Shown piece by piece: positions 18,730-50,383 of a stretch of 64,000 bases of DNA. Below the pieces are notes generated by a model. The model made no database searches and had not been told where the DNA came from. It saw only the letters and a list, made by a program, of their open reading frames with translations. This stretch comes from a virus, in IMG/VR virus record IMGVR_UViG_3300027545_000001, positions 501 to 64,500 of that record; one strand, given 5' to 3'. Position 1 is the stretch's first letter; every line of letters begins with the position of its first letter. The translations under genes and the position numbers were made by a program.

Positions 18730-18736
18730 GTGCCAC

Positions 18737-18757
18737 AAAGTGTAATGATTACACTTT
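18737..18757. repeat. Dispersed palindrome copy 9
   Basis: Perfect AAAGTGTAAT-G-ATTACACTTT at the convergence point; supplies the stop of 18749..18976. Confidence 0.95.
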
Positions 18758-20861: not shown

Positions 20862-20893
20862 AAGGTTGGAGGAGTACTGGTACTAGGATACCA

Positions 20894-21343: not shown

Positions 21344-21635
21344 GTGATTTACTCCGTTCTGCTAGTTCTTTGTTGACACAATTCATTGCACTTTCCTTGG
21401 TAAGGAACTCAGAATATCCACAGTATGCTTGACCAACATATGCCTTCCATAACTCGTGCTCTACCCGAGCTGTTCCGACCACAGCGCCCTCCTTGGTTAC
21501 GCATAAATAGGTTTCTGGGAATGACTCAGTTCTATGCAGAGACCAAGTGCAGTCCAAAGAGCTATCTCTGTGTGTAGGTTTTGGTGATCCACAACCAAGG
21601 AACCCTAACATCAATAGCAAATAGGCGTGTCTCAT
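21336..21635 (-). CDS. Putative lipoprotein
   Basis: MRHAYLLLMLGFLG-C lipobox-like leader; AGGAGG RBS. Confidence 0.55.
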   Translation of the reverse strand: MRHAYLLLMLGFLGCGSPKPTHRDSSLDCTWSLHRTESFPETYLCVTKEGAVVGTARVEHELWKAYVGQAYCGYSEFLTKESAMNCVNKELAERSKSHD

Positions 21636-21817
21636 TTATTACCTCCTACTATTTGGGCTGTCACTTCTACTACCACTAACTCCTCTGGCCTGATACTCTT
21701 AGATGCAGACTTGATTGCGTCCTTCTTGTTAGCAAAGAACTCGGTCTCATACTCCTCTAACTCTGCCATAATCCTGGGTATTGTCTTGTTGCGAGTAGTC
21801 ATGAAGTAATGTCTCAT
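21632..21817 (-). CDS. Hypothetical protein
   Basis: GAGGAG RBS; coupled overlaps. Confidence 0.55.
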   Translation of the reverse strand: MRHYFMTTRNKTIPRIMAELEEYETEFFANKKDAIKSASKSIRPEELVVVEVTAQIVGGNK

Positions 21818-21996
21818 TACTCCTCCTCACAGTCTGCTTGTACTTGCTCTAGGGTTTCATAGGGTGGGTCAAAGGGCGGCATGATATAGCCATGGACTCC
21901 AATAGACTTAAGGAATCCAACTATCCTGCTTAGTTCCTTGTCAGTTGCTTCTAATGCTACTTCTACAATTGTCTTAGGACCTTCCGGCGCGGGCAT
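21817..21996 (-). CDS. Hypothetical protein
   Basis: Likely start MPAPEG at 21996 after GAGGAGG. Confidence 0.5.
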   Translation of the reverse strand: MPAPEGPKTIVEVALEATDKELSRIVGFLKSIGVHGYIMPPFDPPYETLEQVQADCEEE

Positions 21997-22012
21997 AACT
22001 ACCTCCTCAGCC

Positions 22013-22040
22013 ATCATACCAAAGTATACCGTGGTGTCAA
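22013..22040 (-). promoter_or_regulatory. Sigma70-type promoter
   Basis: TTGACA-N16-TATGAT with an extended TG on the minus strand, just after the polA stop. Confidence 0.4.
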
Positions 22041-22043
22041 CTC

Positions 22044-23429
22044 TTATTTATCCAGAGATCCCCAATCAGCCGCCGTCACTGCACTGGCCTTGATTGGTAC
22101 TGTAAGTGGAACACATGTCTCGAATCTGTATTTAGTAAGCTCGCCCATCTCCTCTGCCACGTCTTCTCTGCACTCGAATACTAACTCATCATGCACCTGT
22201 AGCAGCGGGTGGACTATATCCTCAAGAGTCTCTATATCGTCATTGATAGCAGCCATAGCTATCTTGAGTATGCCTTGTGCGCCAGCTTGTAATGGTAAAT
22301 TGCCTGCCTCTCTCAGTGCAGCACTTACTACCCACTGTAAGACACTCCTAGCTGCTGTGACATGTAAGATACGCCCCCACATATCATGAATCATGGCGTG
22401 CCGTCTAACATAGATATCATCGGCACGCTGCATCTTAGTAAGTCCTATGTACTTTAGATAGAATGAGTTAATAAGATCAGTACACTTGTTCTCAGTCCAC
22501 ATAGGTATGAACTTACTGCATGTGTGCTTACTGGCGTCTAAGTGGCAGTTATCACATAGTACTGGCATCTGAGCCAGTAACCCGCCACCAGTTACACGGT
22601 ACATAGAAGCTAAGATACAAGTCTTAGCTGGGTACCTGTGCTGCATAGAGTCAACAGTGGGGTAGATCCACTTACCTTTGTCATCTCTGTATCTTTCATC
22701 TTTGAGCTTGAATGCTGTGGTGGCGAAGTCAGAGTAGATGTCCTCTTTATTCCTATAGATAGACATGAGGCCAGGGTCTTGACTCCTATGCGCTGCGACT
22801 CTCATCTCTATCTGACTTAGATCTACTGAGAGATACACCCATCCTTCATCGGTAATAAATCCCTTACGAATCTCCTTGCCTCTGTCTGTTCTAGTGGGCA
22901 TGGCAAGTAAATTAGGGTCTGCACAAGATAGCCTGCCACTGGGTACGCGAGTGGTTCGGAAGTTAGGGAACATGCGCCATGCTCCGAACGAAACCCTCTT
23001 GGCAAGTCTAGGCATTGGTCTGACATAAGTACCCCTTAGTTTCTCAAACTCCTTATATTCCAATAACTTGGGTACTACTGGGTGGTCATGCTGGATAGCA
23101 GTTAGTACCTCATCCTCGACAGACTCTCTATCACCGCTGCTGGTCATCTTAGGCCGTGCCTGCTTGAGACCTAGCTTCTTGAAGAGTAAGTCTGCTACCT
23201 GATCTCCGCTGCCACAGTTGATGTAGTACCCGGTAAGTGCTCTAACATCCTCAGTGATCTGATCCATATCGGATGTGAGTACTGTCTCTAACTTGGAGAA
23301 GTGATCTAGGTCAACTCTGAGGCCACGCTCTGCCATCTTGAGTATTAGTGGCATAGCGTTCATATCTATTCGTTCTGCATTGGCTGGGCATGGGCCATTA
23401 ACTAGCCTTACTCCCCCATAGAGCCTCAT
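22044..23429 (-). CDS. polA: Family A DNA polymerase, polymerase domain only
   Basis: TRVPSGRLSCADPNL; motif A LSVDLSQIEMRV; motif B RYPAKTCILASMY; motif C LLQVHDELVFE. Confidence 0.92.
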   Translation of the reverse strand: MRLYGGVRLVNGPCPANAERIDMNAMPLILKMAERGLRVDLDHFSKLETVLTSDMDQITEDVRALTGYYINCGSGDQVADLLFKKLGLKQARPKMTSSGDRESVEDEVLTAIQHDHPVVPKLLEYKEFEKLRGTYVRPMPRLAKRVSFGAWRMFPNFRTTRVPSGRLSCADPNLLAMPTRTDRGKEIRKGFITDEGWVYLSVDLSQIEMRVAAHRSQDPGLMSIYRNKEDIYSDFATTAFKLKDERYRDDKGKWIYPTVDSMQHRYPAKTCILASMYRVTGGGLLAQMPVLCDNCHLDASKHTCSKFIPMWTENKCTDLINSFYLKYIGLTKMQRADDIYVRRHAMIHDMWGRILHVTAARSVLQWVVSAALREAGNLPLQAGAQGILKIAMAAINDDIETLEDIVHPLLQVHDELVFECREDVAEEMGELTKYRFETCVPLTVPIKASAVTAADWGSLDK

Positions 23430-23578
23430 TTAGAGAATGGGCATTCTTCACCAAACTGAGCATAGTATGTCCTATTCTCCAATGGCCCATAATATAAGAC
23501 ATGAGTTAGGCAGAGCCTACACCATAGTTCATAATCTCGTATTGATTCTCCACAGCAGTCACATCGTGATGTAATCAT
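23426..23578 (-). CDS. 50-aa zinc-finger-like protein between the polymerase halves
   Basis: Hand-translated MITSRCDCCGESIRDYELWCRLC...; starts in palindrome copy 10; ATGA overlap with polA. Confidence 0.55.
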   Translation of the reverse strand: MITSRCDCCGESIRDYELWCRLCLTHVLYYGPLENRTYYAQFGEECPFSK

Positions 23579-23582
23579 TACA
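23570..23582. repeat. Dispersed palindrome copy 10
   Basis: TGTAAT-C-ATTACA core; on the minus strand its TAATG is the stop of one ORF and the start of the next. Confidence 0.9.
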
Positions 23583-23739
23583 GATTCCTCAGTTGCACTC
23601 CGTGCTTGTCTCCATAAGTCAGAAGAAGCTGATAGATAGCTTCATTCCTGAATGGTGACTCAGTGAATACGGCGGGCTTATCTGTGAAGAAGGCCCGGTA
23701 AAGATTGACTAATGGTTGCTTAGAACATACTATCGTCAT
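23578..23739 (-). CDS. 53-aa hypothetical protein
   Basis: Hand-translated MTIVCSKQPLVNLY...; AAGGAG RBS. Confidence 0.55.
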   Translation of the reverse strand: MTIVCSKQPLVNLYRAFFTDKPAVFTESPFRNEAIYQLLLTYGDKHGVQLRNL

Positions 23740-23885
23740 GCTGCTCTCCTTTATAGATTAGGCGCGTCGGTGCTGAGGTTTAAGCACATGTAGCTGTCAT
23801 GAGAGTATGGCGTCCCTCCCCTTAGCTCATGGTCTTGCATGTTGTACCCTTTTGATATCCGATATTTTATTCGCGCGCCCCAATA

Positions 23886-25259
23886 TCATGCTGCTTTATC
23901 TGCCCAGAACTCCTGTGGCCGTCTTCTAACGTTGTGCTCCATCCATTTAAGTAGAGGCCACAGTCTTAATGTGGCGTCTGCATCCCTGCAAGCATAGTGA
24001 ATCACCTTGTCTATTGGGGCATAGGTGATGCACTTCCCAGGCCATGAACCTAGCTCCTTCTCCACCATCTCATGGCACTCATCCCAGTTATCCCAAGCAG
24101 TGAATAAGTCCTTATCAGAGTTCTTATTGAGATCAGTAAAGAACCGCTTTAATTTAGTACTCATACTCTGTGCCTGATATATCTTCCACTTACCATCCTT
24201 GTCTCGTATCATCTCTGCTTCAGGCTTAGGCCACTCTTCTAAGTGAGCCTGCCTGTAGTAGTCCAGCACAAGAGGCTTAGCGTAGGGAGTTACTAAGTCA
24301 TCAAAGTCCTGCATAGTCATCCCTAACTCCCTATAAGCTAGAGCTTTGAGACCCTGTGGCATGTTACCCAGTGAGAACACCTTGACCATAGTGTCTCTGA
24401 TGCGACTATTAGGAAATACTAGCCCCATCTTCTTGACTACTTTGCCGTCAAAAAGCCAATTGTGAAAAAGTATAAGCCCCTTCCATTCACTAAGATACGC
24501 TTGGAAAGTCTCCAGTATATCGATCCTAGATGCCCTGACCAGATATCCCGTCCCTTCCCGGATTGAAAAGGTGAGGCAGAATGGATCTCCTCCACGTTTA
24601 ACCTCCGTATCACATGCCATTAAAGTGTAATCATTACAGCCGCCCAGTATCGAGTGCAGGTGGGCTACACTTACAACCTCTTCATACTCTTCTCTGCCCT
24701 GGTACTTATCCTTGGGCAGCACTAACTTACCTATGATGTACTTACGCAACCTAGTCCAGTCAGTGCGGATGAGTAACATCTTCTTAGGTTCATGGATGCC
24801 ACCCGCCGGGTGGTACATAGGGAATGCCTTGCCCCACATAGTAGTAACTGGCATTCCATGCTGTAACTCAAGGTCTATATCTGGATCAATCGCTCTGCAA
24901 GCGAAAGCCCCCATCGGAATGATGAGGTTAGGCTTGTGTCTTTCAAGATTGGGGTAGAGATGGTGCTCGGCACATGCCTGCAATAAATCACAGTCTGCCT
25001 GCCGCTTAGTATCAAGTTTCCCTTTAGGTCTGTCTGGTAGGCAAGAGATAGCATTGTCAAAGTATACTGAGTCTCTTTTGAATCCTGCGATTGGTAAGTA
25101 TCCACGGTTCACCTCATCTCCTGTCTTGCCCATGAATGGCAGTCCCCGTCTGTCCTCTGTAGATCCTGGGGCTTCACCTATGAAGTGATAGCCGCAGTCA
25201 GCAGGGCCATCTGGTGGCACACAGTTATTCTTGCCTGGACAGAGGGGGCAGCGGCTCAC
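23886..25259 (-). CDS. Uracil-DNA glycosylase (family 4-like) fused to 3'-5' exonuclease (N-terminal part of the DNA polymerase)
   Basis: CPLC, FIGEAPG and MYHPA UDG motifs; Exo I CDTE, Exo II FHNWLFD, Exo III YACRDA. Confidence 0.88.
   Translation of the reverse strand: MSRCPLCPGKNNCVPPDGPADCGYHFIGEAPGSTEDRRGLPFMGKTGDEVNRGYLPIAGFKRDSVYFDNAISCLPDRPKGKLDTKRQADCDLLQACAEHHLYPNLERHKPNLIIPMGAFACRAIDPDIDLELQHGMPVTTMWGKAFPMYHPAGGIHEPKKMLLIRTDWTRLRKYIIGKLVLPKDKYQGREEYEEVVSVAHLHSILGGCNDYTLMACDTEVKRGGDPFCLTFSIREGTGYLVRASRIDILETFQAYLSEWKGLILFHNWLFDGKVVKKMGLVFPNSRIRDTMVKVFSLGNMPQGLKALAYRELGMTMQDFDDLVTPYAKPLVLDYYRQAHLEEWPKPEAEMIRDKDGKWKIYQAQSMSTKLKRFFTDLNKNSDKDLFTAWDNWDECHEMVEKELGSWPGKCITYAPIDKVIHYACRDADATLRLWPLLKWMEHNVRRRPQEFWADKAA
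24626..24638. repeat. Dispersed palindrome copy 11 (intragenic)
   Basis: AAAGTGTAAT-C-ATTACAG; encodes CNDY in the UDG-exonuclease gene just before Exo I. Confidence 0.9.
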
Positions 25260-25361
25260 TTTACCACCCCAAGTGTAGACCCAGCTTGTTTGCTAGGAAT
25301 AAGCCCAGATATACCCAGAGTGTCAGCCCTGTAGCCTCTAGTAGCATATAGAGAGCCTTTC

Positions 25362-26117
25362 TTACCATCCTCGTATCTCCTTTATGATCTTCCTTGCCGT
25401 CTTGACTCCTAGTCTAGGCAGCTTCAGCCAGTCCATCTCACTTGAGTTAGCTAAGTTAATAGGCAGTTTGAATAACTCCTCTGCCTGCAAGCTATGCTTG
25501 ACTCCGATATCCTCTATGTCACTCGCCCACTTTCTCACTAGCGTTGGCTTGCCCCTCATGTCTGGGATGCAGAGCTTCTGTACCTCCAGCATCGAGGTGT
25601 GACTCTCCCAGGGTTTCTGGAAGTAACTGTAAATAGAGGATATATTGAACGCAGTATGTATCAAGTCGCGGCTCTGAGAGATTAATACACCTGACATTGA
25701 AACACTTAGTAAGTAGTTGAATAGCTTCGTATAGAGTGTCCTGCTGCTCCTGTACTTGCAGAATCCCCATGATGTTCCTCCATTGAATCCTTCCATCAGC
25801 CAGCCCTCTGGGTCATGTGGTCGCCAGCAGCCCTCTAACATAAGGATGCTGACCTGATACATCTGACCCATACCTACCTTCTGGTGTGCTGAGTACCTAC
25901 TGTCGTCTATACAGTTGAGCATGTCGTGCAGAGTCTTACGCTCTATGCCGATCATGATCTTACCGTGAGGCCCATTGCCCTCGAATGCAGCATCAGCAAA
26001 CTCTAATGCACCCTTATCACAACTGATACCTATGCGCCGGATATGTGAGATGAGCTTATCCACAGTGGTTAGATCACGCTGTTTTTCAGCCCCAGACCTA
26101 TAATCAACGAGGATCAT
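25362..26117 (-). CDS. ERCC4/XPF-family nuclease with C-terminal HhH
   Basis: ILVDYRS...IGIERKT..D...LMLEG; LPRLGVKTARKI. Confidence 0.8.
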   Translation of the reverse strand: MILVDYRSGAEKQRDLTTVDKLISHIRRIGISCDKGALEFADAAFEGNGPHGKIMIGIERKTLHDMLNCIDDSRYSAHQKVGMGQMYQVSILMLEGCWRPHDPEGWLMEGFNGGTSWGFCKYRSSRTLYTKLFNYLLSVSMSGVLISQSRDLIHTAFNISSIYSYFQKPWESHTSMLEVQKLCIPDMRGKPTLVRKWASDIEDIGVKHSLQAEELFKLPINLANSSEMDWLKLPRLGVKTARKIIKEIRGW

Positions 26118-26244
26118 AAGCAAATATTGACCACCCTACAGATACCATGAGTACAGCAGTTAACTCTAAGTTCCCACCCATATGGCAGTAAGCGGCTATG
26201 CCTATACCACCAAGAATGAGGACAAATGCTACTAAGTACTTCAT
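26104..26244 (-). CDS. 46-aa two-TM protein
   Basis: Hand-translated MKYLVAFVLILGGIGIAAYC...; ATGA overlap with the ATPase stop. Confidence 0.5.
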   Translation of the reverse strand: MKYLVAFVLILGGIGIAAYCHMGGNLELTAVLMVSVGWSIFAYDPR

Positions 26245-27116
26245 AGACTCCATTCCTTCATATCCACCTCGGGATAGATAGCGGACACTAATCCTCTGAA
26301 GTTACAGTCATCACCTATTAACTCCATTCCCTCTAGGCTTCGGTTATGCTTACACTTCAGGAGCCTAATACCAAACGTGCCAGGAACCTCCTTATGCGTG
26401 ATTCCGTTAATGCGTGGCGGATTATAAAAGTGCCGTAGTTGTATCTGCCATAAGTAGTCCTGATCGGGGAATCCTTGGCGCACTTTGTTGCCAGTCTTTC
26501 TCTTGGTGTCGCTGCCATCTCTCTCCTTCATTGGCTGCCCAGCTGAGTCAGTCACAGTCAGATACTCATCTCTTATCTTGTTGGTGCCAATAACTATCTT
26601 GCCTGAGTCCCATGCTCTAGCTGTCATAGCCCGCCGTCCAGCATAGACATCTCCATACTTAGTCTGCGGCCAGACGTTAGCCAACTTACCGAACTCAGCA
26701 AGCCTCTGGAGTTCCCAGAAGTCGCTATCACCATCAATGGCTACTGTGACTGCATCAGTATTATCAAGAGCCTTATAGAAAGTGCTCCGAGTCTCCCTGA
26801 AGTAGTCTTCATACATACCCTTGGCAGTCGGCCCAGTGTTCAGAGGGACCTTTATTACCTTGAATGCAAACTGATCCGACTTACGCTCTTTGGGCGGATT
26901 AGGATTGTCAAGCAGGCCGTCAAAGCCACGATCTAATGCGATGAATATGCCAGGGCCTGGGCAGGAGAGAATGAACTCACTCTTGCCTGTGTTAGTCTCG
27001 CCTTCAGTGCCGATGAGCAGAGGCTTGAGGAACCTGCCATTAGGCAGCTTCATCCTGACACGAGCTTGTGCAGCAGGCTGGAATCCATCACGTAAGAAAC
27101 TTGTGGGCAGACTCAT
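26241..27116 (-). CDS. P-loop AAA ATPase (AAA_24/Sak4-like)
   Basis: Walker A GETNTGKS; FIALDRG; VAIDG; likely start 27116 (ATGA overlap). Confidence 0.7.
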   Translation of the reverse strand: MSLPTSFLRDGFQPAAQARVRMKLPNGRFLKPLLIGTEGETNTGKSEFILSCPGPGIFIALDRGFDGLLDNPNPPKERKSDQFAFKVIKVPLNTGPTAKGMYEDYFRETRSTFYKALDNTDAVTVAIDGDSDFWELQRLAEFGKLANVWPQTKYGDVYAGRRAMTARAWDSGKIVIGTNKIRDEYLTVTDSAGQPMKERDGSDTKRKTGNKVRQGFPDQDYLWQIQLRHFYNPPRINGITHKEVPGTFGIRLLKCKHNRSLEGMELIGDDCNFRGLVSAIYPEVDMKEWSL

Positions 27117-27724
27117 TCCATCCCTGCTTCTTGTGCTCGTCTGTACTCCAAATAGTCCATAAGTAGCCGCCAATTGTCGTCAATCTCTTGCTGTGTGAAC
27201 TCAATGCGCCATTTCTTCAGCATCGGCTTCATTGGGTAACTGTAGTCTCCATTCAAGAACAGTACATGTAACTCGGCAAACAGTGTATCTGTAGCCTTGC
27301 AGTAAGACTTGATCTGTGACAGCCACATGAATTGACTAGTCAGATCACCCACAGTCTTAGTTGACTTGTAAGTACTCTTGAACTCGTGTATTACCTTCAC
27401 CCACTTATATATGAAGCTGAGGCTTTCACCATCAGGCGACATATACACACCGTCGTACTCTATCTCGGACGGATGGTCTACTACATCAGGCAGTAAGTCA
27501 ACATATTGCCGCTCCCAGCCAAGCCCGATCAGAATCCTAAGCACTGTAGTAGGATCAGTGATTTCTCTAGCATCTACCAGTGATAACTCTTCAGCCCATT
27601 CAGGCTTGAGTATCCCCATCTCAGTAGCCATGCACCGTATAATGCCGGATACATGCTGCCCTGGAGATCGAGGGATCTTAGGTGGAGGCAGAGTTAGATT
27701 GACTGGGAGTTCAGTTACAACCAT
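27113..27724 (-). CDS. PD-(D/E)XK (RecB/Cas4-like) exonuclease
   Basis: SPDG...IHEFKST...QIKSY motifs. Confidence 0.75.
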   Translation of the reverse strand: MVVTELPVNLTLPPPKIPRSPGQHVSGIIRCMATEMGILKPEWAEELSLVDAREITDPTTVLRILIGLGWERQYVDLLPDVVDHPSEIEYDGVYMSPDGESLSFIYKWVKVIHEFKSTYKSTKTVGDLTSQFMWLSQIKSYCKATDTLFAELHVLFLNGDYSYPMKPMLKKWRIEFTQQEIDDNWRLLMDYLEYRRAQEAGME

Positions 27725-28176
27725 TATAGACTCTCTATTGGGTCTGGGTCAGATACAGCCACAATCTCTAATGGCTGTGGCCGGAATAACATGCTAACTT
27801 GGGGCTGTCGATTCAGGATTCTAAGCACACCAAGAAACTCTCTCTTCCAGTCAGAGCCTAAGCAGGCTTGGATTACCAGCCTTATAGATTCATCTATTTT
27901 CACGATTGAGTTATTGAGTTTGACAACAGCGTGATAGTTCCCACTCTTACTCTTAGAGATTACCCAACTCGGAGAGAACCCTTTCCTACCCAAGATTCCC
28001 ACTCTCCCCTTAAAGGTACTAAGAGCCTCTTCACTATCTAAGTCAAAGGTAAGAGTCTGATCGTCATTGGATATAATCTCTCTACCCATGTCTTGGGCTT
28101 GTTTGATATGATCCTTCTCACTTCGCAGATCATAGTTTTCACTGCATAACTCTTCTACTTCAAGTGAATAGTCCAT
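27724..28176 (-). CDS. Small protein with AEP/prim-pol-like motifs
   Basis: TFDLDS and SKSKSGNYHAVV resemble AEP motifs I and II. Confidence 0.35.
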   Translation of the reverse strand: MDYSLEVEELCSENYDLRSEKDHIKQAQDMGREIISNDDQTLTFDLDSEEALSTFKGRVGILGRKGFSPSWVISKSKSGNYHAVVKLNNSIVKIDESIRLVIQACLGSDWKREFLGVLRILNRQPQVSMLFRPQPLEIVAVSDPDPIESL

Positions 28177-28258
28177 TGTGATTTATCCTCTGGGGTCCCA
28201 CGTCTAACGCCATGAGACCCCAAGTTTTAGTCAGAAGCGCCACAGACTGACTAAACTC

Positions 28259-29191
28259 TTATGACGGCTTCACCATAGCCCCAGCCTTCTCATACCCCAG
28301 TTGGTTGAGTAAGCTATTAGCTCCATCGTCATTGGTGAAGTAGGCATCCTGCACAGCCTGTGCCATATCATCACCATAAGTCTTCTTCACGGCAGAGAAC
28401 GTACCAGTGCGGAAGGGTAGCCATGCCATACCCTTGGGATTCTTCTCCAACACTTCAGAGCCAGAGTTGACAGCGGCAGACAGTACATCTGCTTCGTCAC
28501 TGGCAGGAGTAGCCTTAGTCCCAGGCTTGCTGATTGGAGTAGGCTTGACAGCCCCATTTACCTTAGTGACCGGCACTGCTGTAGCACCAGTTGGAATACC
28601 ACCAGTGCCTTCCCACGGTTTGCCGTCATCAAGGATCTCACTCACTACGGAGATAGTCCTGTTCTTTCTCTCCGTACCTGCATTCTCCATGGTGGCACTA
28701 CCGAAGCTCTTACGTTCCTCCGGCTCAGGCACATGTGCAATAACTACATGCGTTCCATCAAGCACAGAGATGTCATTACTAAACACTCCAGCCGGTAAGC
28801 CAGAATCATAGTAAGACTTGAGCAAAAGAGACCAGTTAGTGCTGTCGGGTAGAGTACTCCCAGATCCTCCCGGTATAGCCACGAGTGACTTACCCGTGTC
28901 TGGGTTGGGTGCAAAACTCTTGTGAGCATTGGTGCCCAGCGAGTAGAAAGCAGTATATGCCCCATCTCCCTGATGGCTAGAGTCACTGAGGCTGTGGGCC
29001 TTCACCATCACACCAAGTCTCGACTCACCCAACTTTTGACCTGCTTTGTTCTCTGCTTGAAACATCTGTACAGTGTGCTCTAGTGCATACTGCCCCGGAG
29101 GTATACCACCCCCAGCAGCATACATATTGAGATCACCGAAGTTAATTCCTGCCACTTCGACAGGGGGTGTTACCTTTTTAGCTACTGGCAT
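28259..29191 (-). CDS. Putative single-stranded DNA-binding protein
   Basis: GGGIPPGQY N-terminus, beta-rich region, flexible linker; position in the recombination block. Confidence 0.4.
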   Translation of the reverse strand: MPVAKKVTPPVEVAGINFGDLNMYAAGGGIPPGQYALEHTVQMFQAENKAGQKLGESRLGVMVKAHSLSDSSHQGDGAYTAFYSLGTNAHKSFAPNPDTGKSLVAIPGGSGSTLPDSTNWSLLLKSYYDSGLPAGVFSNDISVLDGTHVVIAHVPEPEERKSFGSATMENAGTERKNRTISVVSEILDDGKPWEGTGGIPTGATAVPVTKVNGAVKPTPISKPGTKATPASDEADVLSAAVNSGSEVLEKNPKGMAWLPFRTGTFSAVKKTYGDDMAQAVQDAYFTNDDGANSLLNQLGYEKAGAMVKPS

Positions 29192-29204
29192 TACTTTCTC
29201 CTAT

Positions 29205-29432
29205 TTAGTTGATCTTGCTTCTTAAACCATCTCTGATCCAAGCTCGTGCTGATGCTGTAACTTCTTGAGCACAGTCACCTGTACCACCGTTACCTAGTGA
29301 CTGCCAGTACCACTGATCTTGTTTGACCCCATTGACCCTCTCTACTCTACGCCAGATATGGTAAGGACCGCTCTTACCATTGTCTGCCTTGTAGTAAATA
29401 GTAATGGCGTCACTTGGAACATCTGTAATCAT
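29205..29432 (-). CDS. Hypothetical protein
   Basis: Start ATG lies within palindrome copy 12 (MITDVP). Confidence 0.5.
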   Translation of the reverse strand: MITDVPSDAITIYYKADNGKSGPYHIWRRVERVNGVKQDQWYWQSLGNGGTGDCAQEVTASARAWIRDGLRSKIN

Positions 29433-29440
29433 TACACTTT
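29424..29440. repeat. Dispersed palindrome copy 12
   Basis: TGTAAT-C-ATTACACTTT between the helicase stop and the next start. Confidence 0.95.
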
Positions 29441-31001
29441 ACCTCAGAGCAGGTGGCTGTGGAAGCACACTAACCGTCTTGAAGAAAGCATGAAAGCTTC
29501 TAGGTGCTAAGTGTCCATAGCGGGGTATGAACCATTCAACATGTGAGTCACCTATGAATCTTTCACTCCAGTCAGTCTTACTTCTCACATCCCTCCCCAC
29601 CTGCTGTACGAATCTCTGCATAGTTCTATAAGGGCGATACTCTGGGTCTAACTGCTCTCTTGCCTTCTGTATCTTAGAGGGCGGCTCAAAAGGTAACTTG
29701 AGTATGACAGTGAAGCGGCACTGATCGTTAGGGAAGTCATAACCTTCACCAATAGAAGGCGAGACTAAGATAGCGCCAGCGCCAGCGTTACGGAAGCTCT
29801 CTATAACTTCAGTAGGCGCCTCACCTTTAGGGTTAAGGATCATCCTAGAAGAGAATCTACTAGAGTCCTTAACTCCGGTCTGATACCCGAAGGAGGTTGT
29901 CTGTATAATTCCCTTGCGGTCAGTGCGCTTTGCAAGTATCTGGTCAAGCCTAAGCCACAGCATGGACAAGTCGTCTGAGGATCTACTATCGACTCGCATC
30001 GTGGGCACATAATAGATAGGACATCGCTTTGGATCAAAATCACTGTCGAACTCCTTGAAATCAAAGTTATCTTTGCCTATGCCACACATATACATAGTCT
30101 TAGGTCTAAGCGTGGCACTTACTATGATGATCTTAGGTACTCTGAACAAGAGAGCGCCTTCAGCATACTTACCCGGTCGGATAGGATCAAACTGATAGCC
30201 CTGTTCTAACTGCTCCACTATCCAATCCTGTGGGCTGGCAGTAGCCAGTGTAGCCAAGCGGCGAGTTAGGTTACGCATGTGAGTGAAGTGCTTCACCCAA
30301 GCTGGCTTAGGCTGCTTAGCTCCATTCAACTTACTCTGTGCCGCTAACATCTCTAACTCAGCAGTAGCTCTGGCATAGACAGCCCAACTCTTCCAGGTAC
30401 TAAACTCCTGTGACTCGGGGTTAGTGGGGAAGTCTAGGTGTAAGTCTTGCTCTATCTCCTTATGATTGAGTATGACTTGCATCGCAGAAGCCAGAGCTTC
30501 AGGGCACTGATGACCTTCGTCAAAGATAACTTGTTGTATGTGGTTCCAACCTTGACCGTACTTCTTACTAGCCGTCCACTTAGCATAGTTAGTAACTATC
30601 AGCTTAGATGTACTAGCCCGTAACTCAGCCTGACTACAAGGGCACGCCACACTACCTATATAAGGACAGCGGCTAGCAAAGCCTTCCTCACAAGTGTAAG
30701 TGGGGTCATCAGGCTTCATGTCACATTGATAGTTACGTCGTCCTCGGATATCCACCATACCTATAGGTCCGAAGTCACTCATCAACTGATCTTGTAGGCC
30801 CCGAGAGTTAGTAACTACTACAGTAGGTGTGTCACTCTCTATAGCATGAGCCACATAAGCAGGTGACTTACCGCTGCCAGTGGGGGCACATATAGCTACA
30901 GTTCTCTTAGTAGATCGTGACATCAGATCTATCATGCCCTCTTGGTTAGTCCTCCAGTCAGAGAACTTACTCGGAAGCCCGTATTGGTGTGGTGTCTTCA
31001 A
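29439..31001 (-). CDS. DinG/XPD-family SF2 helicase
   Basis: APTGSGKS; IFDEGH; SATL; EGYDFP; ILKLPF; QQVGRDVRS. Confidence 0.88.
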   Translation of the reverse strand: MKTPHQYGLPSKFSDWRTNQEGMIDLMSRSTKRTVAICAPTGSGKSPAYVAHAIESDTPTVVVTNSRGLQDQLMSDFGPIGMVDIRGRRNYQCDMKPDDPTYTCEEGFASRCPYIGSVACPCSQAELRASTSKLIVTNYAKWTASKKYGQGWNHIQQVIFDEGHQCPEALASAMQVILNHKEIEQDLHLDFPTNPESQEFSTWKSWAVYARATAELEMLAAQSKLNGAKQPKPAWVKHFTHMRNLTRRLATLATASPQDWIVEQLEQGYQFDPIRPGKYAEGALLFRVPKIIIVSATLRPKTMYMCGIGKDNFDFKEFDSDFDPKRCPIYYVPTMRVDSRSSDDLSMLWLRLDQILAKRTDRKGIIQTTSFGYQTGVKDSSRFSSRMILNPKGEAPTEVIESFRNAGAGAILVSPSIGEGYDFPNDQCRFTVILKLPFEPPSKIQKAREQLDPEYRPYRTMQRFVQQVGRDVRSKTDWSERFIGDSHVEWFIPRYGHLAPRSFHAFFKTVSVLPQPPALR

Positions 31002-31274: not shown

Positions 31275-31300
31275 ATACTACCACTAGGGTAGAGCTTGAG

Positions 31301-31317
31301 ACTGTAATGATTACACT
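31301..31317. repeat. Dispersed palindrome copy 13 (between divergent HTH genes)
   Basis: ACTGTAAT-G-ATTACACT. Confidence 0.95.
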
Positions 31318-31329
31318 CAATAATAAATA

Positions 31330-31365: not shown

Positions 31366-31584
31366 GTGGCGAGACGGCAATTGACATGGGAGGAGCAGAG
31401 AGTGCGGCGCTGGGTGAAAGAGCACCGTGGCATCCTCACTCAAGTAGCTCTCTCTCATCAGCTATCCCCACAGTTTGTGCAGGCTGTAGCTTATGGCACC
31501 AATCATACAGCTATAGCTACGGCACCTGTGGTGGAGAGAGCACTTCGTAGTGCCGGATGGCCTGGAATTAGGAGAAGGCAATGA
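31366..31584 (+). CDS. Small HTH (Cro-like) protein
   Basis: LTQVALSHQLSPQFVQAVAYG; divergent from the XRE gene. Confidence 0.6.
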   Translation: MARRQLTWEEQRVRRWVKEHRGILTQVALSHQLSPQFVQAVAYGTNHTAIATAPVVERALRSAGWPGIRRRQ

Positions 31585-31869: not shown

Positions 31870-32094
31870 ATGACAATGGCAGAGAGAATTGCCGAGCATA
31901 ATCAGATAAGCACAGACACAATCTATGGGCCACTTACCTATGATATGTATACAATCTGCGGCCATAGTTGCTGCCTATTTCTCCCCGAGTTTGGTCATCT
32001 GAATGATGAATACATATGTGGATCATGCGGCAGCAAATGGACTGTAGTTGACAAGAGTGACCCAGTTTGGTCTGAGATTTCACGGGGGATATGA
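31870..32094 (+). CDS. Zinc-finger-like protein
   Basis: CGHSCC and CGSCG motifs; AAGGAG RBS. Confidence 0.5.
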   Translation: MTMAERIAEHNQISTDTIYGPLTYDMYTICGHSCCLFLPEFGHLNDEYICGSCGSKWTVVDKSDPVWSEISRGI

Positions 32095-32252
32095 TGCCTA
32101 AGTTTCTAGAGGATAAATTAAAGAAGGAGTACGGCAGCAACAATAATGCCATCTATGGCACTATGAACAAACTGGGGGCCATGAAGGGTAATAAGATCAC
32201 CAAGAAGGGTGAGGACATGCAGAAGAAGCATGACTCAAAGATGAAGAAGTAA
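32091..32252 (+). CDS. 53-aa Lys-rich protein
   Basis: Hand-translated MMPKFLEDKLKKEYGSNNNAIYGTMNKLGAMKGNK...; GGGGG RBS-like run. Confidence 0.6.
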   Translation: MMPKFLEDKLKKEYGSNNNAIYGTMNKLGAMKGNKITKKGEDMQKKHDSKMKK

Positions 32253-32278
32253 GAGGAGTGGGGAGAAGGAGCAATAAA

Positions 32279-32962
32279 ATGCGCAACTTACAACGTGGCG
32301 GGCTGCTTATCGCAACAGCCCTAGTAGCAGTTCTTTCAGCACATGCGTCGACGGTGAACTGTGCCTCAGCAACCGGAGTCATCACGTATGGAGTAGCCAA
32401 CACCGACTCGTTTTTCTGTGGCAATGTGGTGTTCTCCAACTTCATACTAGATGCGGTGTCAGGTGGGGCTGGCAGTGTCACCATCATTGGTGCAGACTAC
32501 AACACAGTAACGGGGCAGGTTGTACTTAACCTTGATCCTGATCTAGTTAGTGACCAAGATGACCTGCTCACCTATCAAGCTGCTGCCTTCACAGGGTTCA
32601 AGATCACTGGTCTTGATGCTTCCATTGGTGGTGATGATGCTGCTATGGATGAGCGTGCTTGCCTCCTGCCTGTGCCGACCAGTGGGCCATCTGCTTATCT
32701 ATGTCCCAAGGGAACTCAGTTAGGGTCTATAGCTATAGCAAGTGGAGATCCTGATATGCCGGTGTTTTCTAATCCCTTTGGTTACATAGGGCCAGTCTAT
32801 GTAGTAAAGGATATTGGTACAGGCCCAGGGGGATCTGAGTCAGTAGTAAATCAGAGCTTTGAAACTGCCAATGATACTCCCCCAGTTCCAGAGCCAGCCA
32901 GCCTGCTTCTACTTGGTGGTGGTCTGTTTGGTCTAGGTTTATGGAAGAGGCGTAAAGCCTAG
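32279..32962 (+). CDS. PEP-CTERM sorting-domain surface protein
   Basis: Signal peptide MRNLQRGGLLIATALVAVLSAHA; C-terminal VPEPASLLLLGGGLFGLGLWKRRKA; AAGGAG RBS. Confidence 0.92.
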   Translation: MRNLQRGGLLIATALVAVLSAHASTVNCASATGVITYGVANTDSFFCGNVVFSNFILDAVSGGAGSVTIIGADYNTVTGQVVLNLDPDLVSDQDDLLTYQAAAFTGFKITGLDASIGGDDAAMDERACLLPVPTSGPSAYLCPKGTQLGSIAIASGDPDMPVFSNPFGYIGPVYVVKDIGTGPGGSESVVNQSFETANDTPPVPEPASLLLLGGGLFGLGLWKRRKA

Positions 32963-32974
32963 ATTCTTAAGGGG

Positions 32975-34177
32975 ATGGCTAAGGTCATCCCCATTAAGTG
33001 TAATCATTACATGCAAATCAAATTCAAATCAATGGGAGTCCCGATACTCTTGGTGTCTGACAACCCGGCACTACAAGGTGGACTCTCCCGCATGTGCCGT
33101 GACTTAGCCAGTCTATGCAGCACAATGCCGCAGTTCAGAGTGGGTGTATTAGGTAGAGGGTTAGGGCAGCGCAGTAAGTTCCCTTGGATAACCTATGACT
33201 TCCCCGAGTCTGGTAACTGGGGTGAGGATATCATAGAGCCTGTCTGGAATGACTTCGCAGGAGAAGATTCAGGTGTAATCATTACACTTGATGATCTATC
33301 CCGGCGGCACTGGTTCACTAATCCAGTTGGCATGTCTCCTCAGTTACAGCGGTTCCTAGGTGATGGCCGTAACTTTAAGAAGTGGGCTTACCTCCCGCTT
33401 GACTCTACTGGCCCCAAAGGATTCACACTCAGTGCTGCTGCTACTGACTGTGCTCTCAGGTATGACCGAGTGCTTGCGGCATCAGAGTGGGGATATAACT
33501 TACTGAGAGCTAGTGGTAGACATGATGCTGACTGGTTGCCTCATGGTATATGGGTGGATAAGTTTAACCCTTGGCCTCATTTATCTGACCCAAATGTATA
33601 TGTTGGATGTGTCATGGCTAACCAGTCCCGCAAGGACTTCCCTGCTGCCTTTGAGGCATTCGCTGTGCTCAAAGAAGAGTATGGTAACAGGCTCCGTATC
33701 TGGCTGCATACAGATGTGATGATACGATACTGGAATATCTATGCATTAGCTGCTGACTATGGTGTATCTGACTGCATAGAGGTAACACAGGATAAAGATG
33801 ATAAACAGCTTGCTCTACATTACTCTGCTTGTGACTGCACTATCCTCCCTTCTGCTGGGGAAGGATTCGGATTCCCTACTGCTGAGTCTCTTGCTTGTGG
33901 TACTGCCTGCATTGTTACTGACTATGCTGCTGGCCAAGAGATAGTAGAAGAGGAGTGCCGTGTTACTCCACTCGCGTACAGAATCGATACTCAACATAAT
34001 TGCAGACGTGCTGTGTTATCTGGTTATGCTTTTGCACAGAAGGCGAAAGAGCAAATAGAAAAGAAGCGTGCCGACTGGGGGTATAGGTCACAGGAGTTAG
34101 CTAACTCAGTGAGTCACCTTGACTGGACTAAGCTGGGTAACTTGTGGCGTAAGTGGCTGCTGGATGGAATCAAATGA
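32975..34177 (+). CDS. GT4-family (GT-B) glycosyltransferase
   Basis: NQSRKDFP; YSACDCTILPSAGEGFGFPTAESLACG; true start may be 33011 or 33032. Confidence 0.88.
   Translation: MAKVIPIKCNHYMQIKFKSMGVPILLVSDNPALQGGLSRMCRDLASLCSTMPQFRVGVLGRGLGQRSKFPWITYDFPESGNWGEDIIEPVWNDFAGEDSGVIITLDDLSRRHWFTNPVGMSPQLQRFLGDGRNFKKWAYLPLDSTGPKGFTLSAAATDCALRYDRVLAASEWGYNLLRASGRHDADWLPHGIWVDKFNPWPHLSDPNVYVGCVMANQSRKDFPAAFEAFAVLKEEYGNRLRIWLHTDVMIRYWNIYALAADYGVSDCIEVTQDKDDKQLALHYSACDCTILPSAGEGFGFPTAESLACGTACIVTDYAAGQEIVEEECRVTPLAYRIDTQHNCRRAVLSGYAFAQKAKEQIEKKRADWGYRSQELANSVSHLDWTKLGNLWRKWLLDGIK
32999..33011. repeat. Dispersed palindrome copy 14
   Basis: AAGTGTAAT-C-ATTACA at the start of the GT4 gene. Confidence 0.9.
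33272..33289. repeat. Dispersed palindrome copy 15 (intragenic)
   Basis: GGTGTAAT-C-ATTACACTT; encodes GVIITL in GT4. Confidence 0.95.
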
Positions 34178-34869
34178 CACACGAGGTAGTTAGTGTGATA
34201 TGCAGTGGGTCTAATTTGACCAGTCATATTGACAGAATCATAGACAATACTGGCAATTACTTCGCCCCATGTGTAGCATATGAAAAGCTACTCAGGACCT
34301 CTACCCCAGACATCATTATCTACATCCATGATGATGTGACTATTCATGATTCTAACTGGCTAGAGAGAGTTATAGATTGTTTTGATGTGCCTATGTATCC
34401 TTCTGAGAATACTGTGGCTGTTGGTCTTGGTGGTGCAACTCAGTTAGGTAATGGCAACCTCTACCGCAAGCCATACAACATTATGAACATGGCCCGCTAC
34501 GGCTATGCCAGCAACCAGACTGATGCCGAAGTGCATGGTGCAAGATTCACTGGAGTAAGAAAGGTGGCAGTCCTTGACGCTTTCTTCATGGCAGTTAGAA
34601 GAGATTGGCTTCTATCTATTGGAGGCTGGCCCGTCCGTTATCTTACTCATCACTGCCTTGATACTTGGCTGGCGTGTGAGGCAGCTAGAGCGGGGAAAGA
34701 GATCTGGATGGTAGGTGCGTCATGCACCCATCACGGCGGCGGCTCCTCGACTAAGGACACTTACAGAGATGCTAAGTGGCTACAGGGTGGGAGCCGTGAG
34801 CTTGACCACCGACTGCCGCATAAGTGGATCTATGAAAACTATGGGGATGTGCTTCCCATAATCATATGA
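34174..34869 (+). CDS. GT2-like glycosyltransferase
   Basis: IIYIHDDV; VLDAFFMAVRR; HHGGGSS; ATGA overlap. Confidence 0.75.
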   Translation: MTHEVVSVICSGSNLTSHIDRIIDNTGNYFAPCVAYEKLLRTSTPDIIIYIHDDVTIHDSNWLERVIDCFDVPMYPSENTVAVGLGGATQLGNGNLYRKPYNIMNMARYGYASNQTDAEVHGARFTGVRKVAVLDAFFMAVRRDWLLSIGGWPVRYLTHHCLDTWLACEAARAGKEIWMVGASCTHHGGGSSTKDTYRDAKWLQGGSRELDHRLPHKWIYENYGDVLPIII

Positions 34870-35540
34870 CTAACATAGTGATGCTAGTACGTGATAGGTA
34901 CATCCTAACTAGGCAGGCTCTTGATTCTCTGTGGGAGCATACTAACTACGATGATTACACTCTGACTGTAGTAGATGATGGCTCTACTGATTTTAGGGTT
35001 AGACACTTTACTCCTGATCTATATGTTGAAAGGAGTTCACATACCCTATCTCAGTTAAAGAATCTCTGTATCTACTGGTCTGAGCAGCACTTTGGCCGTG
35101 GCGATTGGTTGTACATCAGCGACAATGATGTGTACTTCGCTAACGGGTGGCTCAGTGATCTTATAAGAACTGCCAAGTTAACTGAGAGAGATGGGTTTAA
35201 CCTATGGGGTGGACAGCATCATCCGTACCATAAGCCCATAGATAGTTGGATATCTTCAGTGGGTATGCTATGCGCCACAGAGCATGACTGTCTAGCTGGT
35301 ACCTCATGGCTGATGCGGTGGTCAACTTGGGATAAGTATGGCCCATTCAAGCGTGATACTGCACCCGGAGTATGTCAGTCAGAGGACTATGAGTTTACCC
35401 AGAGACTACGTGCTGATGGCGGTAGGATTGGTGTCATCCACCCCCATGTAGTTATTCATACGGGCATTACTAACTCAGAAGGCAAGCCCGCTGTCGGGTC
35501 TGATCTGTTTCCTAGAGTACCCGGAGTAATCTATGAGTGA
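34866..35540 (+). CDS. GT2-family glycosyltransferase
   Basis: VVDDGSTD; YISDNDVYF; SEDYEFTQRL. Confidence 0.85.
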   Translation: MTNIVMLVRDRYILTRQALDSLWEHTNYDDYTLTVVDDGSTDFRVRHFTPDLYVERSSHTLSQLKNLCIYWSEQHFGRGDWLYISDNDVYFANGWLSDLIRTAKLTERDGFNLWGGQHHPYHKPIDSWISSVGMLCATEHDCLAGTSWLMRWSTWDKYGPFKRDTAPGVCQSEDYEFTQRLRADGGRIGVIHPHVVIHTGITNSEGKPAVGSDLFPRVPGVIYE

Positions 35541-36048
35541 ACTACTACTTAATGTAGGTAGCGGCCAGAGACCCTTCAAACCACCTTGGATCAATATAGA
35601 TAAGCAGGCTAAGTGGTACCCGGACATCCTATGGGACTTTGGCAATCCACTTGAGTCACCACACTACAAAGATGACACAGTGGATATGATTGTGATGCAC
35701 CACATACTGGAGCACTATGGATGTGGTGAAGCTAGTAATGCTCTGACTGAGGCTCACCGACTGCTCAAGCCCAATGGCTCCCTCCTAGTCTTCGTGCCTG
35801 ACATGTATGAACTAGGTTGCATGTGGCGTGAGGGCAGGATCTCGGACCAAGTATACATGACCAATGTGTATGGTGCCTATATGGGTGATGATGCTGACCG
35901 CCATAGATGGGGCTATACTAAGTCAAGTCTCAAGTCTGTATTACTTAATATAGGATTCAAGGCTGTAACTAGCTTCAACTGGCGCATGATAGAAGGTGCT
36001 GACTTGGCACAAGCAAGATGGGTGCTGGCAGTGGAGGCGATACGGTAA
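35533..36048 (+). CDS. Class I SAM-dependent methyltransferase
   Basis: LNVGSG; HHILEH; HRLLKPNG. Confidence 0.85.
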   Translation: MSELLLNVGSGQRPFKPPWINIDKQAKWYPDILWDFGNPLESPHYKDDTVDMIVMHHILEHYGCGEASNALTEAHRLLKPNGSLLVFVPDMYELGCMWREGRISDQVYMTNVYGAYMGDDADRHRWGYTKSSLKSVLLNIGFKAVTSFNWRMIEGADLAQARWVLAVEAIR

Positions 36049-36287
36049 TGAAGATACATCCCATGACTGCTCTGAAGTGGGGTACTATTTTGGGTAAGAG
36101 AGCCTTTGTTATTGGCTACAGACTGGTAGAATTAACATCATACTATCTTATCCTTATTACACACCCCCGCACTTACTATAGATATCTATGGCGCAGACCC
36201 AATTGGATGGTATCTGGATCTTTGAGTATTAATAGATCTTTCTATAGCAAGTTAGTACATTTGGAGAAGAGATGGGATCGATATTAA
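36048..36287 (+). CDS. Hypothetical protein
   Basis: TAATG-coupled start MKIHPM. Confidence 0.5.
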   Translation: MKIHPMTALKWGTILGKRAFVIGYRLVELTSYYLILITHPRTYYRYLWRRPNWMVSGSLSINRSFYSKLVHLEKRWDRY

Positions 36288-36964
36288 TTGTAGCTAGGAA
36301 CTCACTGGCACTTACTAAGTTAGCAGTCAAATCTGCACTAGCCCAGGATGTTCCATGTGACGTGCTAGTCATAGATAATGACAGTGCTGATGGTACATCT
36401 TACTGGCTTCGCACTAAGCCGCTTGCCTATATCGCCTATCACCCACAGAAGTCACTGTCTGCCTGCTGGAATGCTGGTATCAAAGCCTTCTGGAGTGTTG
36501 GTGCTAGTGAGGTATTGGTCATCAATAATGATGTAGAGATAGCCCCCAATACGTATAGAATATTGAGTGCTGGAGAAGGATTTACTACAGGAGTTGGAGT
36601 ATCAGATAGGGAACAATTTAAACCAGTCCCAGGTATTCTGCTGGGTACAAGCAGACCCCACCCAGATTTCTCCTGCTTCATGATACGGAAAGAAGTAACA
36701 GATAAGGTTGGCTGGTTTGATGAGTCATACTATCCAGCATACTGCGAGGACTCCGACTATCATGTGCGTATGCACAAGGCAGGTATAGAGGCTGTCTGTG
36801 TTGACCTACCCTTCTACCACTACGCAGCAGGCACACTCAAGAATGCTAACCCCGCAGAGGCATCAGCTATAAAGCATGGGGCGGATGCTAATAGAGAGAG
36901 ATTCAGGAAACAATATGGCTGCTTACCTGGGTCTGATGCCTATAACAAGCTGTTCGAGGAGTGA
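36272..36964 (+). CDS. GT2-family glycosyltransferase
   Basis: VIDNDSADGT; VINNDVE; FDESYYPAYCEDSDY. Confidence 0.88.
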   Translation: MGSILIVARNSLALTKLAVKSALAQDVPCDVLVIDNDSADGTSYWLRTKPLAYIAYHPQKSLSACWNAGIKAFWSVGASEVLVINNDVEIAPNTYRILSAGEGFTTGVGVSDREQFKPVPGILLGTSRPHPDFSCFMIRKEVTDKVGWFDESYYPAYCEDSDYHVRMHKAGIEAVCVDLPFYHYAAGTLKNANPAEASAIKHGADANRERFRKQYGCLPGSDAYNKLFEE

Positions 36965-37353
36965 TAGAGATGCTACTTAATCTGATAGAAGATATGAATA
37001 AGTGCCTGCCTGATTCATCATATGAGAAGCCTCTGCTAGAGATTAATGGATGGAAGTTCTTTCTTGATGAGAATGGCTTCTTACCATCCGCCAGTAATAC
37101 AATGCTGGTGGCTAAGATATTGGCATGGAAAGATACTGAAGATAATCATTACGCATCCTGTGTGGGTAACAGTACCCCACTAGGAACTATACAGTACCAG
37201 AAGGGACGTGACTTATCCACTGGATTCACACAGGGGTGTGTGATAGACACAAGATTCTTTAGTAGATACGGGTCCAAGGGTATTCAAGATGAGTGTAGTA
37301 AGACTCTGCAAAGACTAATAGACTTTGTGTCTAGTAGGGAATCTCTTACTTAG
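36961..37353 (+). CDS. Hypothetical protein
   Basis: GAGGAG RBS; last gene of the GT operon. Confidence 0.5.
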   Translation: MIEMLLNLIEDMNKCLPDSSYEKPLLEINGWKFFLDENGFLPSASNTMLVAKILAWKDTEDNHYASCVGNSTPLGTIQYQKGRDLSTGFTQGCVIDTRFFSRYGSKGIQDECSKTLQRLIDFVSSRESLT

Positions 37354-40340: not shown

Positions 40341-40359
40341 AAGTGTAATCATTACACTT
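40341..40359. repeat. Dispersed palindrome copy 16
   Basis: AAGTGTAAT-C-ATTACACTT between stop 40359 and the next RBS. Confidence 0.95.
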
Positions 40360-50364: not shown

Positions 50365-50383
50365 AAGTGTAATCATTACACTT
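50365..50383. repeat. Dispersed palindrome copy 19
   Basis: AAGTGTAAT-C-ATTACACTT overlapping the MCP stop, followed by an AGGAG RBS. Confidence 0.95.

Follow-up and report, generated by a model that had tools for sequence, protein, structure and literature searches.

Gene content of the locus

The window analysed here is a 64,000-nucleotide stretch, bases 501–64500 of the 66,875-bp IMG/VR virus record IMGVR_UViG_3300027545_000001, which CheckV rates as 100% complete. It encodes matches to phage portal, major head protein and terminase, as well as a family-A DNA polymerase (PolA), a UDG-exonuclease fusion and a helicase; no tRNA genes were found in it. The phage has a guanine-plus-cytosine (GC) content of 48.5%, and several soil metagenomes contain the same phage or near-copies of it; no RNA sequencing run was found to contain the locus. 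Our subject is a locus at positions 32279–37353, at which a gene for a predicted secreted protein with a PEP-CTERM sorting signal precedes an island of four glycosyltransferase (GT) genes and one gene for an S-adenosylmethionine (SAM)-dependent methyltransferase (the genes described below between 31366 and 37353 are on the + strand). We consider it probable that the two are evolutionarily separate neighbours, namely a piece of host-derived cargo next to a lineage-core island that may glycosylate virion proteins.

The PEP-CTERM gene (32279..32962) encodes a protein of 227 residues and has a strong ribosome-binding site, AAGGAG, 7 nt 5' of its open reading frame (ORF). Read directly from the sequence, the N-terminal signal peptide (32279–32347) comprises two Arg residues, a hydrophobic core and an A-H-A cleavage motif, and at the C-terminus a VPEP motif is followed by a Gly/Leu-rich helix and the basic cluster KRRKA. 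The PEP-CTERM tag (~32882–32953) passes the curated cut-offs of both PF07589 (29.7 bits vs 20.7) and TIGR02595 (25.6 bits vs 16), with the match confined to residues 202–225, i.e. to the extreme C-terminus, which bears out the VPEP-transmembrane-KRRK tail recognised, together with the signal peptide, in the original prediction, a reading made from the DNA letters without database searches. This ORF is the sole PEP-CTERM match in the whole virus record. The absence of a recognisable exosortase, noted earlier for the window, extends to the entire 66.9-kb record, in which PF09721 was not found, so that any sorting of the protein must rely on a host enzyme. Unlike members of the named NCBIfam PEP-CTERM subfamilies (THxN NF038125, NF038129, EDSAP-1, PepA NF033554, XDP1 and others), the phage protein matches these models by its tail only: no full-length match was obtained, and the scores of 14–30 bits (vs cut-offs of 50–125) came from the last 25–45 residues. 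Judged from these matches and from the homology described below, the tag truly belongs to the sorting-signal family, and the protein itself is assigned to an uncatalogued family of Bryobacterales.

The signal peptide and the C-terminal helix flank a domain (32348–32878) with four Cys residues, which an AlphaFold2 model built with the family alignment A1 represents as an all-beta sandwich at a predicted local distance difference test score (pLDDT) of 91.4; the model from the single sequence (pLDDT 36) was unusable. Among solved structures, carbohydrate-binding modules and GH98 C-terminal domains come closest (Foldseek, VIA; Z 8.0–8.6, TM up to 0.46), values to be read against a calibration of the fold search in which a Z of 7–8 is typical of chance best matches. 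Among predicted structures, the closest are those of other small PEP-CTERM proteins, and proteins of this kind from several phyla were likewise the neighbours in the ESM Atlas, a similarity of features only, of which no use was made for taxonomy.

The island starts with a GT4 enzyme (GT-B fold, retaining type; 33011..34177; PF00534, E 7e-13, and PF13692), followed by a GT-A enzyme of the PF13712 family (34174..34869; E 9e-12), a GT2 enzyme (34866..35540; PF00535, 27.4 bits), a compact class I SAM-dependent methyltransferase (35533..36048; PF08241, 30.6 bits) and a last GT2 (36272..36964; PF00535, 24.9 bits). These Pfam matches agree with the four GTs and the methyltransferase called in the original prediction, and the catalytic motifs are kept: the E-x7-E motif of GT4 is invariant in the family alignment A3, and a GxGxG-type motif occupies methyltransferase residues 8–12. 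The C-terminus of the last GT2 shows a weak similarity of the beta-4-galactosyltransferase type (TIGR01556, E 1e-7, below cut-off). In PDB sequence searches the GT4 had weak matches only (MshA, a sucrose-phosphate-synthase-like protein and PBCV-1 B736L), and the GT-A enzymes had none. The genes mostly overlap, as had been described: the junction is ATGA at both 34174 and 34866 and GTGA at 36961, and 8 nt are shared at 35533. The earlier gene layout was right in its order but needed two amendments. The GT4 start, placed at 32975, is most likely the ATG at 33011, at which the N-terminus aligns with those of relatives, and a 79-residue ORF (36048..36287; without Pfam match) coupled between the methyltransferase and the last GT2 had been missed; it is joined to the methyltransferase gene by a TAATG stop/start overlap at 36046–36050, and its position varies among relatives. 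The unit is closed by a 130-residue ORF (36961..37353; GC 41%) with no family match.

No membrane or hydrophobic segment is present in any island protein, and no flippase, polymerase, oligosaccharyltransferase or priming phosphoglycosyltransferase acting on a lipid carrier was recognised among the ORFs scanned. The soluble, cytoplasmic nature of the GTs, together with the lack of a recognised flippase, oligosaccharyltransferase or priming enzyme, implies that these GTs could not reach a protein exported through the Sec pathway.

The island in related phages and the 758-bp insertion

A blastn search of the region against 50,697 phage records gave zero matches, and a pattern search of IMG/VR with the single sequences of the PEP-CTERM protein and of GT4 returned no relatives; for GT4, an alignment had to be used as the query. 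At E<=1e-10, 263 GT4 homologues were found, and among the 120 of these 263 matches listed about one third are on contigs of roughly 55–68 kb. We compared 15 relative loci in detail: the three closest, with GT4 65–69% identical, and 12 IMG/VR loci obtained with the alignment query. Across these syntenic loci GT4 identity is 49–70%, and the order of genes is Cro-like, GT4 and GT-A, mostly followed by GT2, variable inserts, methyltransferase and GT2, with divergent structural genes coming after the island. The GT-A gene is kept in all 15 relatives, the first GT2 in 13, the methyltransferase in 12 and the last GT2 in 10. The inserts encode PLOD-type GTs (at least eight loci), extra GT2 and GT4 enzymes, methyltransferases of the Methyltransf_23/24 type and a B12/radical-SAM enzyme. 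G003, a relative with a complete genome of 64,934 bp bearing terminal repeats, was found via its portal protein (67% identical) and has GT4, GT-A, GT2, methyltransferase and GT2 in the identical order at 52–57% identity, plus three extra genes inside the island and no homologue of the 130-residue ORF. From this distribution of homologues, the island appears to be a modular, diversifying glycan pathway and a core component of a large soil-phage lineage.

The PEP-CTERM gene does not share this conservation. Searches of all ORFs of the loci with a locally built hidden Markov model (HMM) of the PEP-CTERM tail and with a family HMM matched the window alone and none of the 15 relatives bearing the GT/methyltransferase island, and no PEP-CTERM gene is present anywhere in the complete genome of G003. 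The arrangement of the flanking genes is consistent with this. A Cro-like early gene (31366..31584), with a promoter-like site (31296–31324) upstream of it, opens the rightward transcription unit, and its homologues, 38–61% identical, lie 5' of GT4 in 14 of the 15 relatives. Further downstream a conserved basic protein of 53 residues, of the MPKFLEDKLKKEY... type, is encoded at 32091..32252. In relatives its gene directly adjoins GT4 (L013, L014, L110, L112, L115, L116, L117 and L119), the stop codon abutting or overlapping the GT4 start (4276/4276 in L014, 4783/4780 in L112). Here the two genes are 758 bp apart, which identifies the PEP-CTERM gene as an insertion into the lineage-core island. 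This phage-specific insertion (32253..33010) holds exactly the ribosome-binding site, the PEP-CTERM ORF, a spacer and one copy of a palindrome that recurs throughout the phage (see below).

These observations bear directly on the model of the original prediction, in which the PEP-CTERM protein heads a functional glycosylation operon and the methylated glycan decorates either this protein or signal-peptide-bearing fibres, or cloaks the host surface. The attraction of such a single unit is easily seen: the genes are adjacent and run in the same direction, no terminator is predicted between them, PEP-CTERM systems have been associated with exopolysaccharide loci and their GTs (PMC1569441), and the GT4 is weakly similar to an XrtA-system GT. 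That similarity, however, amounts to 27.5 bits vs a cut-off of 409 for TIGR03088 (stp2), and the XrtY-associated model NF046085 gives 12.8 bits vs 400. The prediction had also staked itself beforehand on the two parts occurring together in relatives, and the count is 0 of 15, with the gene cleanly inserted between genes that otherwise abut. Moreover, with soluble GTs the Sec-exported protein would be out of reach, and at a Ser/Thr content of 15% it is not Ser/Thr-rich. We therefore regard the single-unit model as improbable; treating the two parts separately corrects an operon model that is tempting but wrong.

Some features of the island and its surroundings in relatives may be noted here. 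The lysine-rich protein of 53–57 residues (MPKFLEDKLKKEY...GTMNKLGAM.GNK type; L014 4106–4276, L112 4610–4783, L119 6638–6811 and others) is encoded directly ahead of GT4 in most members of the lineage and may itself belong to the island. Between the Cro-like gene and GT4, relatives have a hot spot of small variable genes and of other exported or membrane cargo (e.g. L116 5103–5444, L110 6339–6485, L111 6479–6649); its products include a 113-residue protein whose leader (MNRRGFLRALG...) is twin-arginine-like, as well as small proteins containing hydrophobic helices. In or next to the GT island, relatives also encode an enzyme of the B12-binding radical-SAM type and a protein of the SPFH/Band-7 type (L113 10270–11724; L116 7286–8146). 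Two island-bearing relatives, L111 and L113, are on IMG/VR contigs of 107,603 and 94,720 bp, vs the usual ~62–67 kb; these might represent concatemers or larger phages, or else junctions of phage and host DNA from which a host might be identified.

Cellular origin of the PEP-CTERM gene and the probable host

A word-based search with the PEP-CTERM protein returned a sole relative (P0002, 83% identical), encoded on a 1.26-kb contig (L010) with different small ORFs upstream. The two genes differ at 29% of nucleotides, with a nonsynonymous divergence (pN) of 0.118, a synonymous divergence (pS) of 0.80, which is saturated, and a pN/pS of 0.15. Since synonymous sites are saturated while pN is low, the protein has been maintained by purifying selection.

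An exhaustive phmmer search with the mature domain widened the family to 71 cluster representatives, with the best cellular match at E 6e-33. The members retrieved and aligned are of ~200–240 residues and share a signal peptide, four conserved Cys (C28, C47, C128 and C142) and the PEP-CTERM tag. The nearest cellular homologue (P0123, 48% identical) is chromosomal, its gene lying between aspS and a ketoacyl synthase gene, and another member (P0131) is encoded beside housekeeping genes on a 1-Mb contig. The variability of alignments A1 and A2 of the family precluded a scan of genome contigs, and host genomes were reached via the neighbouring aspS. A Bryobacterales metagenome-assembled genome encodes an aspartyl-tRNA synthetase 86% identical to the one adjoining P0123, and the next best matches are from Bryobacteraceae. 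The family profile matched 17 of the 151 Bryobacterales genomes sampled, and exosortase (PF09721) was present in all four family-bearing Bryobacterales genomes tested.

A maximum-likelihood tree of 72 sequences groups the two phage-context copies as a pair with 100% support on a long stem (0.84 substitutions per site), nested in a clade with P0123 (Shimodaira–Hasegawa-like approximate likelihood ratio test 93), and the sister clade contains the tandem copies of the Bryobacterales genome G004. The phage protein thus resembles the uncatalogued four-Cys beta-sandwich PEP-CTERM proteins of Bryobacterales, such as P0123 and the tandem pair of G004, in full-length homology, length, Cys residues and tag, and differs from them in its long branch, its lower GC and its placement under phage transcriptional control. 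It also differs from cellular PEP-CTERM genes in general, which typically stand alone with a long regulatory region upstream, in being part of an early operon of a phage without exosortase. Overall, the PEP-CTERM gene is of cellular origin, belongs to this family, has evolved under purifying selection and entered the phage lineage core by insertion.

One could argue that such a gene is a neutral passenger, captured recently and of no use to the phage. It is, after all, absent from the 15 relatives, and the interval in which it sits is prone to take up variable small genes. On the other hand, the signal peptide, the four Cys and the tag are intact in two copies as divergent at synonymous sites as those described above, and the GC of the gene (50.5%) is close to that of the phage rather than to that of the L010 copy (54.5%) or of the high-GC donor that we assume. 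The long stem branch implies a long residence in phages, and the strong ribosome-binding site is likewise hard to reconcile with a gene without function, so that we give the neutral-passenger explanation little credence.

The nesting of the protein in a Bryobacterales family is complemented by the capsid protein (50382–51620), whose only match in a cultured phage is to Tunturi_1 and Tunturi_2, phages of Tunturiibacter (Acidobacteriota) and the only, recently described, acidobacterial phage isolates that we found (PMC11924767); the match is weak (25.6% identity, E 4e-8). Together the two observations support an acidobacterial host, which had been put forward as a guess from the sequence, and the host is probably a Bryobacterales-like member of this phylum. 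The PEP-CTERM gene hence offers a concrete host link (Bryobacterales, Acidobacteriota) for an uncultured lineage of soil phages.

Candidate functions of the island

In the scheme that we favour for the island, its enzymes would build up a short methylated glycan step by step on the cytoplasmic acceptor itself; this acceptor would probably be one or several virion proteins, not yet assembled or in the course of assembly, and relatives would diversify the glycan by means of the added PLOD-type GTs, GT2/GT4 enzymes, methyltransferases and B12/radical-SAM enzyme. We rate glycosylation of virion proteins in the cytoplasm at close to, or slightly under, an even chance, and favour it on three grounds: the enzymes are soluble, homologues are found in head modules of two unrelated cultured phages, and there is a precedent in actinobacteriophages.

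With respect to the head modules, the Pontimonas phage phiPsal1 (MG835450) encodes homologues of GT4 and of the last GT2, together with a SAM methyltransferase, between its major capsid and neck protein genes; in the Synechococcus phage S-CBS4 (NC_016766) the corresponding genes are flanked by those for portal and head protease. The homology is at 26–32% identity (E 1e-9 to 1e-13). These phages have two GTs rather than the four of the window, their methyltransferases are not detectably homologous to that of the island, and any glycosylation role there is likewise putative. As to the precedent, two reports describe cluster O mycobacteriophages in which three GTs and an O-methyltransferase modify the capsid and the tail tube (PMC11600133, citing Freeman 2023), and glycans on the capsid of the F1 phages Che8 and Rita (PMC11256854). 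The island is like these cassettes in combining tandem soluble, cytoplasmic GTs with a methyltransferase and in being kept across a phage lineage. It is unlike them in its position at the boundary of early and structural genes and in its probably Gram-negative, acidobacterial host.

Sets of GT2/GT4 enzymes with methyltransferases are also typical of O-antigen and exopolysaccharide clusters. The island could thus remodel the host envelope, with its GTs acting peripherally on undecaprenyl-linked intermediates of lipopolysaccharide or exopolysaccharide and host flippases and polymerases finishing the product; superinfection would then be blocked, or re-adsorption of progeny to debris prevented, and the PEP-CTERM gene would again be a separate cargo. 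The hypervariability of the tailoring genes would be in keeping with an arms race centred on surface glycans, a tailspike with a pectate-lyase fold (8423–10618) makes a polysaccharide the probable receptor, and a GT-sulfotransferase fusion is encoded elsewhere in the phage (19320–20861). Several features speak against this option. The island is devoid of membrane-bound and lipid-carrier enzymes and, as a strictly conserved core of the lineage, does not behave as variable cargo; the homologous GT4 and GT2 genes beside a methyltransferase gene in phiPsal1 and S-CBS4 lie in capsid modules; and no tyrosine integrase was found in the phage, which is therefore probably virulent. Nor is there any sign of seroconversion of the Gtr type (GtrA, GtrB, GtrC): the island proteins include no membrane flippase or bactoprenol GT, and the corresponding Pfam families are not matched. 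We view envelope remodelling as a secondary and rather unlikely possibility.

An even less probable alternative, in our view quite unlikely, is that the island hypermodifies phage DNA with glycosylated and methylated bases as a protection against restriction. Phage GTs acting on DNA do exist, e.g. the alpha- and beta-glucosyltransferases of T4, the enzymes of the island are cytoplasmic, and the island adjoins replication and early genes. However, neither the Pfam families of DNA glucosyltransferases nor a base hydroxymethylase, a thymidylate-synthase-like or another base-modifying gene was found among the ORFs scanned (many small ORFs fell outside the scan), and five to nine enzymes, PLOD-type protein GTs included, suit the assembly of an oligosaccharide better than the addition of one or two sugars to DNA.

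Returning to virion glycosylation by a core island next to a separately acquired PEP-CTERM gene, we note the points that weigh against this interpretation. The capsid protein has no obvious Ser/Thr-rich tail, and the GT2 and GT4 families are equally at home in clusters for surface polysaccharides. No homology to mycobacteriophage GTs was detected by tblastn with GT4, the PF13712 GT-A enzyme and the last GT2 against the 50,697 phage records, which makes the island an analogue, not a member, of the mycobacteriophage cassettes. With no terminator in between, the PEP-CTERM gene and the island are probably co-transcribed, so that some functional interplay between them is possible. The resemblance of the modelled beta-sandwich to carbohydrate-binding modules is borderline, and glycan binding accordingly stays a lead. 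As for the assignment to Bryobacterales, the family screens covered Acidobacteriota only, and the screen of a 301-genome sample of this phylum, which matched the centre genome only, scored fewer candidates per genome than the order-wide one (9 vs 19). Finally, a 20-kb query gave no spacer or prophage DNA match in the 151 Bryobacterales genomes, a result that is uninformative by itself.

If virion glycosylation holds true, it would extend well beyond actinobacteriophages, and glycan shields would be common on soil-phage particles of Gram-negative hosts, affecting adsorption, stability in soil and receptor mimicry. In its widest and decidedly tentative form, the interpretation would be that Gram-negative Acidobacteriota are infected by a widespread soil-phage lineage, represented by at least 263 GT4 homologues, whose modular cytoplasmic island makes a methylated glycan that coats the virions and varies across the lineage, and that individual members capture host exosortase substrates and thereby re-engineer the slime layer of the host.

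Possible role of the exported protein

According to the established model, PEP-CTERM proteins of exopolysaccharide-producing bacteria are exported by Sec, anchored by the C-terminal helix and processed by exosortase (PMC1569441, Haft et al. 2006). With its signal peptide, VPEP motif, helix and basic cluster, the small secreted phage protein resembles the substrates of such PEP-CTERM/exosortase systems (EpsH, XrtA), and its family occurs in exosortase-bearing soil bacteria. The gene would be expressed under the early rightward transcription of the phage, and its product would follow the same route of Sec export and helix anchoring, with cleavage and sorting at the PEP motif presumably carried out by the exosortase of the host. 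A small, disulfide-bonded beta-sandwich similar to carbohydrate-binding modules would thereby be placed on the surface of the infected cell or in its slime layer, where it would probably bind or tether exopolysaccharide and alter the accessibility of the surface. For comparison, overexpression of PepA, a PEP-CTERM protein of Aquincola and Zoogloea, turns soluble exopolysaccharide into a cell-bound form (PMC9850573). Possible payoffs for the phage are the exclusion of other phages and an altered aggregation of cells. In the literature searched we found no description of phage genes depending on a host exosortase; the present locus provides a traceable case of a gene that would rely on this enzyme, for which both the cellular source family and the order are identifiable.

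Other features of the phage genome

The genome is a mosaic: the window has its structural genes and GT island in common with G003, but the replication block (window ~12000–31000, with PolA, the UDG-exonuclease and the helicase) is almost entirely without homologue in G003; the helicase is 59–81% identical in the closer relatives L013–L015. Within this block, on the – strand (19320–20861), the gene mentioned above fuses a GT-A domain (Glyco_transf_7C / GT2_2) to Sulfotransfer_4 (E 3e-35). It too has no homologue in G003; its product might attach a sulfated sugar and perhaps broaden the chemistry of the island.

Proteins of the tailspike or fibre type are encoded at 6613–10618 and 58804–63908, among them the one with the pectate-lyase fold. 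They have hydrophobic, signal-peptide-like N-termini and contain 21–28% Ser+Thr, and it is possible that they are acceptors for the island glycan or, alternatively, exported depolymerases.

The two palindrome copies reported earlier near the PEP-CTERM gene proved to be exact, at 32999–33011 and 33274–33286. With the GT4 start at 33011, the former lies after the PEP-CTERM stop codon and extends by its last bases into the ATG of the probable GT4 start, and the latter is within the GT4 coding sequence. The 12-nt core of this 13-bp palindrome, TGTAATSATTAC, has 50 strand-matches in the window with at most one mismatch, vs 0.74 expected by chance. There are 24 exact sites over window positions 5629–58792 (e.g. 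31303–31315, 32999–33011 and 40344–40356), and one copy overlaps the promoter-like site upstream of the Cro-like gene. Most copies are at gene boundaries, often providing a TAATG stop/start, and by this distribution the palindrome looks like a phage-specific regulatory or operator site.

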